64,000 nt of DNA from Eledone cirrhosa. Taxonomy: Eukaryota. Positions 6,671 through 64,000 of this stretch are shown piece after piece. The notes below the pieces were generated by a model. The model was given only the letters and a program-made list of their open reading frames with translations. It was not told the origin of the DNA and searched no databases. Where the stretch lies: contig OZ024740.1 in assembly GCA_964016885.1 (NCBI GenBank), positions 421,104,001 to 421,168,000 on the forward strand, read 5' to 3'. A program made the position numbers and the translations under genes. How positions within the stretch are numbered: position 1 is the stretch's first letter; the number at the start of each line of letters is the position of its first letter.

Positions 6671-6946
6671 AAAGAAAGAGAGAAAAAAAGGAAAGAAAGA
6701 CTGTCTTTCTTTCCTTTTTTTTCTCTCTTTCTTTCTCTCTGTGTACAATTTTTTCACTGCCAATTCAACTTTTTCAAATACAAGTCGATGTTGTTAAGGT
6801 ATGTCGAATCTATTTATCTATAAAACTGTTTATATTGTATTTTGTCTGAGGAAGGCATAGCATATTGTTAATATGATATCCCTGAAATATATATAATGAA
6901 ATAAATATGGTTTTATAAATATAGTTTCCATTTATTTAATATTGTA
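6670..6946 (+). mobile_element. Probable PLE family F1 3' fragment with 5' snap-back hairpin
   Basis: 6670-6735 is a near-perfect fold-back; contains a hammerhead; reverse-complement homolog at ~36957-37130. Confidence 0.7.
6838..6903 (+). ncRNA. Type I hammerhead ribozyme (F1)
   Basis: TATTTTGT-CTGAGGA-AGG..hairpin..CCT-GAAA-TATATA-TA-ATGAAATA; stem I has 2 GU pairs; palindromic stem III. Confidence 0.75.
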
Positions 6947-7003
6947 TATATATAATATATATATATATATATATATAATATATATATATATAATATATAT
7001 ATA

Positions 7004-7069
7004 TCAAGGGCGGTGCCCCAGCATGGCCTCAGCCGGATGGCTGAAACAGGTAAAAGAGTAAAAGAGTAA
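7004..7069 (+). mobile_element. 5'-truncated SINE/LINE 3' tail (duplicate of 123-188)
   Basis: Identical sequence. Confidence 0.6.
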
Positions 7070-7581
7070 TATATAATATATATATATATATATATATATA
7101 TATATATATATATAATATATATATATATATATATATATAATATATATATATATAATATATATATATATATATAATATATATATATAATATATATATATAA
7201 TATATATATATATATATATATATATATAATATATATATATATAATATATATATATATAATATATATATATATTATATATATATATATTATATATATATAT
7301 ATTATATATATATATATATATATTATATATATATATATATATAATTATATATATATATATATATATATATATTATATATATATATTATATATATATATAT
7401 TATATATATATATTATATATATATATATTATATATATATATATTATATAATATATATATATTATATATATATATATTATATAATATATATATATAATTAT
7501 ATATATATTATATATATATATATATATATATTATATATATATTATATATATATTATATATATATTATATATATATTATATA

Positions 7582-60972: not shown

Positions 60973-61886
60973 TATATATTATATATATATTATATATATA
61001 TTATATATATATATATATATATATATATATTATATATATTATATATATATTATATATATATATATTATATATATATTATATATATATATATTATATATAT
61101 ATATATATATATTATATATATTATATATATATATTATATATATATATATATTATATATTATATATATATATATATTATATATATATATTATATATATATA
61201 TATTATATATTATATATATATATATATTATATATATATATTATATATATATATTATATATTATATATATATATTATATATATATATTATATATTATATAT
61301 ATAATATATATATATATATATTATATATATATATATATATATATATATATATATATATATTATATATATATATATATATTATATATTATATATATATATA
61401 TTATATATATATATATATATTATATATTATATATATATATATTATATATATATATATTATATATACATATTATATATATATATTATATATATTATATATA
61501 TATATTATATATATATATTATATATATATATTATATATATATATTATATATATATATTATATATTATATATTATATATATATATATATATTATATATATA
61601 TATATATATTATATATATGTATATATTATATATATATATTATATATATATATATTATATATATATATATTATATATATATATTATATATATATATTATAT
61701 ATATATATATATTATTTATATATATATATTATATATATATATATATATATATATATATATATATTATATATATATATAAATATTATATATATATATTATA
61801 TATATTATATATATATATTATATATATATATATATATTATATATATATATATATTATATATATTATATATATATTTATATATAATA
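60973..61886. repeat. (TA)n tract
   Basis: Seen directly. Confidence 0.95.
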
Positions 61887-62200
61887 TGACTCCAGTTCCC
61901 CAGTGAATTAACAACCCAACAAGGAACTGGGCATATCAGAGTATTGACAATATCATACACCTAAACAACATATGTACTTGTCTATACCATACTAATTCAA
62001 ACTGCCTGAAGAGGTCACAGCCAAAGATGGCTGTCACTGAAATATATATAGCAGTAATAAACGAAGCTAAATTTTAATCATTTGACTTTTATTTAACTTT
62101 ATTTTACACTACTCCGGAGTAACCAAACCAACCTGCGCACTTCGTCGAGTGCTCCAGCCTGCATACTGAGGTGTTGGTATACAACCAACATAAACTCAAA
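61887..62200 (+). mobile_element. Solo hammerhead-bearing fragment F7 (probable PLE pseudo-LTR)
   Basis: ~310-bp non-coding island between TA tracts that contains a hammerhead. Confidence 0.6.
62001..62055 (+). ncRNA. Type I hammerhead ribozyme (F7)
   Basis: ACTGC-CTGAAGA-GGTc ACAGCCA AAGA TGGCTGT cACT-GAAA-TATATA-TA-GCAGT. Confidence 0.82.
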
Positions 62201-62239
62201 ATATATATTATATATATTATATATATATTTATATATATA

Positions 62240-64000
62240 TAGATAAATCTACCAAAAGTTTACGGTAGTGTCCAATCCGTATGAAGAACTCAATGTAATC
62301 CGGATATCATGAAAAGAGAAGATACATTCAAAAACTACTTTCGGTGAAAAATAAACGGAAAACAGAGTCAAGATAAATTAATAAAATAATGAATAAACAA
62401 AGAAACAGTTCCTTATATTAAAAAAAATTCATCATTTTACGATCGTTTCTAGGATATATATGTGTTAGAGTTGGTATCCATATTCTATAGATCTATGTAC
62501 AATATTTATACAAACTATCAGAGGGAATATACATACCTACACATATATATGCTGTCTTCAGAAATAATGATATTTGTTTATTGAAAAAAAACAAAGATTC
62601 AATACAATAGGTCTGTTTGGGAACAGGTTTTGAATTGACCAATAGAGAGATAGTGAGGGTTAAGATAGTAATATAGTAGTAGAAGAACCTTAAATTATGG
62701 GTAGAGGAAGGTAGATTTCAGTTTTGGATGGAAAAGAATATTATGAATGAAAGATTATTTTAGGGATGAAAATAGGTTGTATGCTGACCTCAGAAATAAT
62801 TATATTTGTTCATTGAATAAAACCAACAAAGATCTAATATATTCTGTCTGTTTGGTAAGAGGTTTATAATTAACCAATAGAAAGTTAATAATTGGCCAAA
62901 TGGTAAAATAGTAGTAATTGAAGCTTATTTTAGGCGTGAAAATAGGTCAGGTCAGTAAAAGGTGTACAAGCAGTTGCTGTTATAAAATAGTAATGCCAAT
63001 GCAAATATCTAAGGAGACTAAAGTTTTACGATGAGAGTGTTAGTGTAAAAAATACATCTATGAAAAGAATATAAATTAATTTAATTGATGGGTATATTTT
63101 TATTGATAAAATTATACTAATACATATAGATATGATAAATAAGAGTTAGATGCAGTTGAAAAGTGCTGTTAAAGATGAGGGGAAATTAAAAGAATATAAA
63201 AATAATATATATATATATACATATATATATATATATATATATATATATATATATATATATATATATATATATATACATACACATACACACACACATATAC
63301 ATATATATATACATACACATATATATATATATATATATATACATGCATATATACATAGATACATATATATATACATACACACATACACCCTTACATATAC
63401 ATATAATTATTGGGGGGGGGGGGATTAAATTTATTAGTGAGAAATAATAAATATATATAGATTTCAAGGAACATAGAGTCATAACCTGAAGTTAAAGCAT
63501 TATATATGTTTACTTAATGGTATCAGTTTTAGGAAATGATAGTTGTAAGAAGGAAAGTAAAATTATGAAGTTCATCAGTAGTAGAATATTAATTATAGGT
63601 TAACTAAATTAAAAACAGTTTATATATTAATTTCTAAAGTGTATATTAATTAGGTTTATAATATTTAAAGGTTTTTCTCAGTTTATGATTACACGATATT
63701 ATTAATTCCTGTCGCTTATTTAATAGGATATCCTTAGATTTCATTTGGCCAATTATTAACTTTCTATTGGTTAATTCTAAACCTCTTACCAAACAGACAG
63801 AATATATTAGATCTTTGTTGGTTTTATTCAATGAACAAATAAAATTATTTCTGAGGTCAGCATACAACCTATTTTCTTCCCTAAAATAATCTTTCATTCA
63901 TAATATTCTTTTCCATCCAAAACTGAAATCTACCTTCCTCTACCCATAATTTAAGGTTCTTCTACTACTATATTACTATCTTGACCCTCACTATCTCTCT
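62240..64000 (-). mobile_element. PLE related to F3: ORF C-terminus, ~1.4-kb 3' UTR, inverted 5' copy running off the window
   Basis: 63646-63743 encodes [22 protein letters not shown]..; 62240-62640 is homologous to 20515-20920; 63744-64000 is the reverse complement of ~62643-62899. Confidence 0.85.
62429..62570 (-). ncRNA. Type I hammerhead ribozyme with long stem II (F3 relative)
   Basis: Minus strand: TCATTATTT-CTGAAGA-long hairpin-GAAA-CGATCG-TA-AAATGATGA. Confidence 0.75.

Follow-up and report, generated by a model that had tools for sequence, protein, structure and literature searches.

Thirteen sites in a 64-kb window of the Eledone cirrhosa genome (64,000 nt of contig OZ024740.1, positions 421,104,001 to 421,168,000) carry hammerhead-like motifs that sort into seven sequence families, which we designate A to G. 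The motifs lie 25-200 nt before 3' ends that abut (TA)n, in what are probably tails, pseudo-long terminal repeats (pseudo-LTRs) or truncated copies of Penelope-like elements (PLEs). Judging from their sequences, we consider it probable that they are hammerhead ribozyme motifs predicted to self-cleave, most of them probably only as dimers. An initial annotation of this DNA had listed thirteen hammerheads from seven families, and both numbers stand. Its observation and interpretation were largely right, with corrections taken up below on families B, C and F, on the open reading frames (ORFs) of long interspersed nuclear elements (LINEs) and on orientation, and with cleavage understood as a prediction.

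The same hammerhead-like order of parts is present at all 13 coordinates: helix I, a seven-nucleotide box, helix II, GAAA, helix III, U-H and the return strand of helix I. Six families have a canonical box or one with a U3-A8 pair, namely CUGAGGA (A), CUGAAGA (C and G), CUGAUGA (E), UUGAUAA (D) and UUGAAAA (F). Every site also has G12-A13-A14, then the A15.1-U16.1 pair, and an H17 other than G, which is A in families A, E and G and in the C copy at 62438, U in B and in C at 20712 and 33737, and C in D and F. Positions G5, A6, A9 and G12-A14, together with the non-G H17, are common to all seven family sequences, and the 3-8 pair of the family master sequences is C-G or U-A, never mismatched. 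All 13 predicted cut sites are followed, 25-200 nt downstream, by a (TA)n run of five units or more, in keeping with the earlier claim that the motifs sit near the 3' ends of their elements. The claim that most have a palindromic helix III with no real loop also agrees with what we find: helix III is a loop-less palindrome at 10 of 13 sites and in five of the seven families (A, C, D, F and G), and a hairpin in B and E. These palindromes are 6-10 nt long, counting A15.1 and U16.1, and since they have no loop, helix III of the five families could form only between two molecules.

Within this shared plan the families differ considerably in their helices. The family A motif at 6838-6903 (+) has an 8-bp helix I, box CUGAGGA, a 31-nt helix II hairpin, GAAA, a palindromic helix III AUAUAUAU and a predicted cut after A17 (6895); its second copy at 37000-37065 (-) lies in DNA that is 94.9% identical over 195 bp to 6760-6952. 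Family G, at 62001-62055 (+), combines a 5-bp helix I, CUGAAGA and a helix II of about 10 bp with the same palindrome, AUAUAUAU, and A17. The family D motif at 35802-35890 (-) has the U3-A8 box UUGAUAA, a helix II made up of G-C, U-A, a bulged C and GGC(A) with an insert of 57-58 nt, the palindromic helix III ACUACGUAGU and a GUC cut site, and it has a head-to-head partner at 36337-36424 (+). Family E, at 43483-43533 (-), has a 6-bp helix I, CUGAUGA, a 3-bp helix II flanked by U/U, a hairpin helix III of 4 bp with an 8-nt loop and a UA cut site; a second copy at 53767-53817 (+) is in the opposite arm of an inverted duplication. With this hairpin, family E is predicted to be able to fold as a monomer. 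The family C motif at 20702-20855 (-) has a 10-bp helix I, CUGAAGA, a helix II of about 130 nt that is mismatched (C.A and C.C) where it borders the core, the palindromic helix III ACGAUCGU and U17. Its mirror copy at 33594-33747 (+) lies in the second of two arms (20648-22579 and 33801-31857) that are 96.5% identical, and a diverged copy at 62428-62571 (-) is 84% identical and has H17 changed from U to A. Family F, at 46359-46406 (-), has the U3-A8 box UUGAAAA, a helix II of GAUGG/CCAUC, the palindromic helix III ACCGGU, a GUC cut site and a helix I of two contiguous A-U pairs; its inverted partner at 48672-48719 (+) belongs to arms (46254-47352 and 48824-47734) that are 98.8% identical. The family B motif at 14076-14151 (+), finally, has the box CAGAAGA, with A at position 4, a helix II of 3 bp between flanking U/U and a helix III that forms a hairpin; cleavage is predicted after U17 (14137). 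The predicted cuts of the plus-strand copies fall at 6895/6896 (A), 14137/14138 (B), 33737/33738 (C), 36419/36420 (D), 53811/53812 (E), 48714/48715 (F) and 62050/62051 (G). In the window, the C pair 20702/33594 and the pairs of D, E and F form arms of inverted duplications, and the 13 sites therefore represent about nine independent insertions.

We scanned the window with a strict descriptor that required CUGANGA or UUGANAA, a helix II of at least 3 bp, GAAA, an H17 other than G, a helix I of at least 4 bp and a helix III that was either a hairpin closed by A15.1-U16.1 or a full palindrome. It gave six matches at five of the 13 sites, both family A copies among them, compared with 0.18 in global dinucleotide shuffles, 0.47 in shuffles of local 200-nt blocks (100 of each) and two in the reversed sequence; one local-block shuffle reached 25 matches. 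Allowing one bulge in helix II raised the yield to eight matches at seven sites (A, D and E twice each, and G), the gain being the D pair, with controls of 0.34 (global), 0.74 (local) and again two in the reversed sequence. Families B, C and F fail even this bulge-tolerant descriptor, B through its A4 box, C through a C.A at 10.1/11.1 and a C.C mismatch, and F through its 2-bp helix I. By the descriptor, a three-helix junction that abuts the box is predicted for A, D, E and G; C is mismatched there and F has two contiguous helix I pairs. The initial annotation had described a complete type I fold throughout and had recommended a relaxed search; a complete fold is predicted for the seven sites of A, D, E and G, which the relaxed search recovers well above the shuffled level, and is too generous a description for the six of B, C (three) and F (two), which it misses.

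These control figures bear on the alternative that the motifs match by chance alone, in DNA that is AT-rich and of low complexity, and lack any meaning at the RNA level. The window, a small part of a 3.0-Gb genome, is 68% A+T and consists mostly of long (TA)n and (TG)n arrays with fragments of retroelements between them; the reversed sequence and the outlying shuffle gave two and 25 matches; the relaxation of one core position, as family B needs, is estimated to yield several chance matches per window; and Rfam is silent on the motifs. We nevertheless regard chance as extremely improbable, given genome-wide counts of 2,024 to 39,878 against none for reversed patterns, the covariation in family A, the core-specific conservation in family D and a position that is constant with respect to both PLE ORFs and (TA)n. 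Pattern counts, covariation and subfamily conservation refute it for A, D and G. For family B alone, the reading that it is a conserved element without being a hammerhead keeps some weight.

Part of this evidence comes from family A. A pattern that fixes only the core, a single pair of helix II and the flank of helix III finds 20,053 + 19,825 matches in the genome (39,878), compared with 0 + 0 for the reversed pattern, the control that we used for A, B, F and G alike. We aligned 33 distinct copies from fetched loci and imposed the hammerhead structure on them: 97.0% of the cells pair, against 35-59% when the partners are slid, and 36 double-change cells, affecting six pairs, are seen against 14.7 +/- 3.7 after shuffling (0 of 500 shuffles reach 36). 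Three helix II pairs exchange A-U and G-C (in 12, 11 and 10 sequences), and one helix I pair changes from U-A to C-G. At its centre, the helix III palindrome reads UA in 20 copies, UG in 12 and CG in one, and so stays self-complementary. RNAalifold, given no structure, returned exactly helices I and II and left the core unpaired. All four bases occur at N7; the constancy of the other core positions in this alignment is not evidence, because the search pattern fixed them. The predicted helices I and II of family A are therefore supported by real covariation, and A is the only family that passed the full test of compensatory change. Most of its copies are short islands in (TA)n.

Family D provides a different kind of support. 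A search tuned to close copies, which was used for both C and D, found 17 D matches in the genome, falling into two subfamilies that are about 79% identical. When these are compared with one row per locus (L080 and L083-L085 dropped as near-duplicates), the two ribozyme halves, of 17 and 23 nt, are identical between the subfamily consensuses at 40 of 40 positions, while the helix II insert is identical at 33 of 51 (65%) and the tail at 59 of 75. The conservation of family D is thus core-specific, as read from these consensus sequences. In family G the pattern has 4,933 matches against none for its control; the core is canonical in 97 of 100 listed copies (hand count), and in two of the 100 a helix II pair shows a compensatory change from C-G to U-A. 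Family F has 2,024 matches against none, with box UUGAAAA in 99 and UUGAAAC in one of 100 listed, and family B has 23,229 against none. For family E there are at least 606 genome candidates, and the 40 that were scored gave 41 matches, 40 of them spanning the whole query at 99-100% identity and one a 40-nt partial. Family C has 15 matches, mainly near-identical segmental copies. Its diverged copy at 62428-62571 keeps the core; besides the change at H17, two helix II G.U pairs have become A-U and an A>G change in helix I leaves a wobble pair. For C and D there are too few copies for the compensatory-change test to be of use.

Several observations accompany these genome-wide comparisons. The plus-strand D copy lies exactly between two 176-bp inverted repeats (36155-36330 and 36494-36668, 98% identical), and the right-hand repeat follows D in eight of 16 genome copies, which suggests either that a composite is spreading as one unit or that the target is preferred. 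The two mirror C copies recur as a pair, at 100% identity, at C15:43.60 Mb, C3:153.50 Mb and C1:399.75 Mb, with a spacing of about 11-12 kb at two of these places and about 6 kb at the third, compared with about 13 kb in the window (20560-33801). This recurrence points to a block of several kb, with about 6-13 kb between the two copies, that was recently duplicated as a segment, moves as a composite unit or is an artefact of the assembly. The fetched loci also contain a second U3-A8 family with UUGAAAA, helix II GCAG/CUGC, helix III ACCGGU and helix I CCUU/AAGG; it has core and helix III in common with family F, and different, well-paired helices I and II.

How the motifs relate to PLEs is best followed from two PLE ORFs in the window. 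An AT-rich PLE ORF at 29305-31413 (-), with YRDD and, at its C terminus, a motif of GIY-YIG type, represents the parent family of the C motif; its homologues are in molluscs and a bryozoan, some of them carrying the Pfam domain PF01541 GIY-YIG. A GC-rich PLE ORF fragment of 466 aa at 38536-39933 (-) has YIDD, CX4CxxC and GIY-YIG (Pfam E=0.019), and a first look at the genome gave 57,115 candidates. A Protein Data Bank sequence search with both ORFs gave no useful match. Two C-terminal fragments are more directly placed. One, at 12939-13121 (+), is 42% identical to aa 641-701 of the AT-rich PLE and lies upstream of the family B motif; the other, at 63673-63744 (-), is 96% identical to aa 678-701 and lies upstream of the C copy at 62428-62571, which is 1,073 nt downstream of it and sense to it. 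For family B, a PLE ORF is found 955-1,097 nt upstream and sense in the window (955 nt from 12939-13121) and in loci L186 and L188, and for family F a GIY-YIG ORF lies 1.08-1.45 kb upstream and sense in 11 of 30 fetched loci. In locus L035 a C motif stands about 500 nt upstream of the start of the AT-rich PLE ORF, as it would in a pseudo-LTR, with a partial-tandem junction of 3' end and 5' start between the motif and the ORF start. In L167 and L180, a family A copy is 170-190 nt away from the 5' end of a PLE ORF in the opposite orientation, an inverted pseudo-LTR arrangement. The PLE linkage thus covers B, C and F, which are sense and about 1 kb downstream of ORFs with reverse transcriptase (RT) and GIY-YIG, and A, as an inverted pseudo-LTR. 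The earlier statement that the motifs are sense to the PLE ORF wherever one is present holds for those at 14076 (+) and 62429 (-) and does not hold for 33594 (+), which is antisense to 29305-31413 (-).

We considered the GC-rich PLE as a parent of family A or E and rejected it, as its tail has a hammerhead of its own. Elsewhere in the genome (loci L060-L078) this element has a 1.5-kb, extremely C-rich tail with A/C repeats that ends in (TA)n, and about 130 nt before the (TA)n this tail carries a minimal hammerhead with helix III ACGU. In the window that hammerhead is missing because a 200-N assembly gap at 38224-38423 cuts the tail.

The insertions share further features, namely a location in (TA)n, 5' truncation and head-to-head inverted copies. 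Inverted pairs occur in the window and genome-wide, the (-,+) head-to-head arrangement being very common for A, B, F and G; examples are found at loci L011, L028, L087, L106, L148 and L154 and at 36950-37144 of the window. The junction of the truncated inverted copy is often at the hammerhead box or just 5' of it, and in family B it falls at about 14095-14097 in at least eight of 25 distinct copies. Inverted PLE copies with 5' truncation are as such known from the literature; the feature added here is the recurrent break point at the ribozyme edge.

On the reading that the motifs are mostly dimer-dependent PLE hammerheads, a transcript that spans two sense copies, such as tandem pseudo-LTRs, would form a dimeric ribozyme with two active sites through the palindromic helix III of 6-10 nt. 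The predicted cut after H17 would then set free RNA of unit length whose ends are 5'-OH and 2',3'-cyclic phosphate; this RNA could serve as the template for target-primed reverse transcription at TA repeats and might also be ligated into circles. Family E, with its hairpin helix III, and B, if it is active, could act as monomers. Orphan tails make up most of the copies in the window, and these would be inert fossils of their families.

The abundance of short copies raises the question of which element is actually moving. Several families, A and D above all, could be short non-autonomous elements of the retrozyme type that borrow the PLE machinery, so that the ribozyme repeat is itself the element. 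We regard this as quite possible without thinking it probable. It would fit the roughly 40,000 copies of A, mainly short islands in (TA)n, the common start point, ACATGAGG, just 5' of the ribozyme in five D copies, and the lack of any PLE ORF found within 1.5 kb of D copies; a 2026 preprint also argues that animal retrozymes derive from PLE pseudo-LTRs (10.64898/2026.07.22.740005). The A copies in L167 and L180, by contrast, sit as inverted pseudo-LTRs near PLE ORF 5' ends, and Tandem Repeats Finder detected no tandem arrays of ribozyme units in the window, where the copies are single or in inverted pairs. Moreover, 5' truncation of autonomous PLEs yields an identical picture. The retrozyme-like origin is compatible with dimer-dependent PLE hammerheads and is not opposed to them.

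A number of results weigh against the interpretation of all thirteen motifs as self-cleaving hammerheads, and we bring them together here. Rfam hammerhead models match none of the 13 sites at the gathering threshold in a whole-window scan, in which a partial tRNA was the only match, and none at E<=10 when the 13 excised loci (1,973 bases) are searched. When folded or cofolded by minimum free energy, G (as monomer) and D (as dimer) are the only families to show the hammerhead helices, a result that is not decisive. Family C is mismatched (C.A and C.C) where helix II begins at the core, family F has two contiguous pairs in helix I, and for B, E and F no covariation is readable because these families are too young and uniform. 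Adjacency to PLEs is mixed for E, and none was found for D. In family B, A4 (box CAGAAGA) is present in 100 of 100 listed copies, and Ruffner and co-workers reportedly found in 1990 that substitutions of U4 strongly slow minimal hammerheads. Published PLE hammerheads, as described in PMC4209133, cut poorly in vitro and do so only as dimers or with an extended helix III. For the PLE of Anolis, the account in PMC11167929 describes cleavage that is protein-assisted and dispensable for insertion in vitro, with no RNA-seq ends at the site.

The Rfam result can be explained by the motifs themselves, through their loop-less helix III, long helix II and U3-A8 or A4 cores. A whole-window search at E<=10 likewise has no hammerhead among 150 listed of 325 matches, these 150 being microsatellite look-alikes of microRNA (miRNA) families and a few other chance matches. 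Elsewhere in the genome RF00163 has 19 matches above the cut-off, all from one further family of canonical PLE-type hammerheads. This silence even at E<=10 bears out the earlier suggestion that the forms in this window would escape standard descriptors. Since curated covariance models are blind to all 13 motifs, the window should be useful for better descriptors and for genome annotation.

Another reading is that the fold is retained chiefly for a structural role in the 3' tail, such as a platform on which the PLE RT binds or is positioned near its site of internal initiation, with cutting weak, accessory or lost in several families (B, C and F). The motif is always within the last 25-200 nt, which even severely 5'-truncated copies keep. 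Some of the successful families are non-canonical, B with its A4 and F with its 2-bp helix I, and the fetched loci include a CCGAAGA (C4) family whose palindromic helix III covaries. The reconstituted Anolis element, as already noted, does not require its protein-assisted cleavage for insertion in vitro (PMC11167929), and Naiads proliferate without canonical hammerheads, according to PMC8557442. What makes a mainly structural role unlikely, in our view, is that the pattern of conservation is the catalytic one: N7 is free, the D subfamilies are identical in box, GAAA and palindrome, the seven families share G5, A6, A9, G12-A14 and a non-G H17, and the 3-8 pair is kept in all the family master sequences. 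A pure protein-binding role would not predict conservation of this type.

Family B deserves separate consideration, since its fixed A4 is the sole unusual feature among the 13 motifs. By its predicted core it is not a canonical hammerhead, and it may be a variant that cuts slowly or with the assistance of a protein, or else a structural relic that does not cut. A non-circularly permuted hammerhead of the kind described by Eckert et al. (2023; PMC10085705) was considered for B and rejected, as the order of its parts is ordinary type I. A literature search on U4A hammerheads, made for a precedent of A4, gave unrelated papers only; position-4 variants may already be among the 'exceptional core changes' of PMC4209133. 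It is conceivable, if rather doubtful, that the roughly 23,000 copies of B and the smaller CCGAAGA family are natural hammerheads changed at position 4 that still cleave, perhaps with help from a PLE protein. If A4 and C4 cores did cleave, the accepted consensus of the catalytic core would be extended, and standard searches would be missing a large share of animal hammerheads. An A4 fixed in tens of thousands of copies tests whether these motifs are kept for cutting or otherwise. In the small CCGAAGA family the helix III palindrome covaries, as ACAGCUGU / ACAAUUGU (CAGCUG, CAAUUG), and CCGAAGA also replaces CUGAAGA in some of the hammerheads of GC-rich PLE tails.

Much of what we describe has close published counterparts. 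Dimeric PLE hammerheads were reportedly described by Lunse and colleagues in 2017. Cervera and de la Pena (2014; PMC4209133) described minimal hammerheads with weak, dimer-dependent cleavage in metazoan PLE pseudo-LTRs, and the window motifs resemble those described there in their type I order, their location in the flanking repeats of PLEs, their short helix I, and a long helix II that sometimes has a 5' bulged base. A helix III that is absent or a small palindrome, implying dimers, is common to both, as are the U3-A8 core variant (about 1,300 matches in Schistosoma), the opposite-strand pairs, there 100-700 bp apart, and the thousands of orphan copies. The background on which the initial annotation had relied, that PLE pseudo-LTRs carry minimal hammerheads with dimer-type palindromes, thus matches the 2014 account. 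Relative to the motifs set out in that account, the palindromes here are longer (6-10 nt), helix II contains an insert of 57 nt in D and one of about 130 nt in C, A4 is fixed in the listed B copies, E has a full hairpin helix III, and host and sequence families are different.

The host elements, similarly, resemble the endonuclease-containing (EN+) PLEs of Craig et al. (2021; PMC8557442), in which the hammerhead is near the 3' end, (TA)n is the preferred target and 5' truncation is strong. Partial tandems that act as pseudo-LTRs, an inverted 5'-truncated copy abutting the 5' end, and a CX2-5CxxC before GIY-YIG (here in the GC-rich PLE) are further points in common. We see no architectural difference from the elements as presented there, the window adding interleaved LINEs and long (TA)n and (TG)n arrays. 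The Poseidon element PAc of Anolis carolinensis (Frangieh et al., 2024; PMC11167929) is another PLE with a hammerhead and with AT-rich insertion that leaves a 'tail', and in it the C3-G8 pair matters for cutting. Unlike the arrangement seen here, the PAc hammerhead and the ORF start overlap in the upstream pseudo-LTR. Metazoan non-LTR retrozymes (Cervera and de la Pena, 2020; PMC7229834) likewise have type I hammerheads in short non-autonomous repeats and a presumed dependence on PLEs; they form tandem arrays that give circular RNAs, unlike the single copies and inverted pairs of the window. With Rfam Hammerhead_1 (RF00163), finally, the window motifs have the catalytic core and the type I topology in common, even though none of the 13 reaches E<=10.

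It follows that minimal pseudo-LTR hammerheads, the U3-A8 core, palindromic helix III and (TA)n targeting were already published between 2014 and 2021 (PMC4209133, PMC8557442). The density and diversity that had been singled out as notable are ordinary for this genome, and the features behind them are in print. Specific to the present case are the new sequence families, the helix II inserts of 57 nt and about 130 nt and the fixed A4 of family B. The window thereby samples many hammerhead designs from the PLEs of one genome, with canonical and U3-A8 cores, a helix II ranging from 3 bp to about 130 nt, and a helix III of dimer-only or monomer-capable form.

The retroelement content of the window extends beyond PLEs. 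The large ORFs of 1039 aa are LINEs, not PLEs; three full-length copies, at 1764-4883, 8606-11725 and 23482-26601 (all +), encode an AP-endonuclease, RT and a PHD finger and are 97-99% identical to one another. LINE fragments lie at 15205-16443 (-), 40058-41800 (+), 54020-55363 (-) and 55382-57607 (+). A second LINE family, about 76% identical, also occurs in the window, and both families share TA arrays with the PLE tails, with which they are interleaved.

Two further structures are of minor interest. The partial tRNA-like match at 18380-18437 (-), which scores 30.6 bits against Rfam tRNA over model positions 8-63, lies within a TA-rich stretch and may be the head of a short interspersed nuclear element (SINE) or a tRNA fragment. 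At about position 50297, a PLE C-terminal (GIY-YIG) fragment adjoins an inverted copy of itself (49950-50669), and the two give a near-perfect hairpin of about 200 nt, which Rfam picks up as a miRNA look-alike, MIR7996, at 72.8 bits, below threshold.

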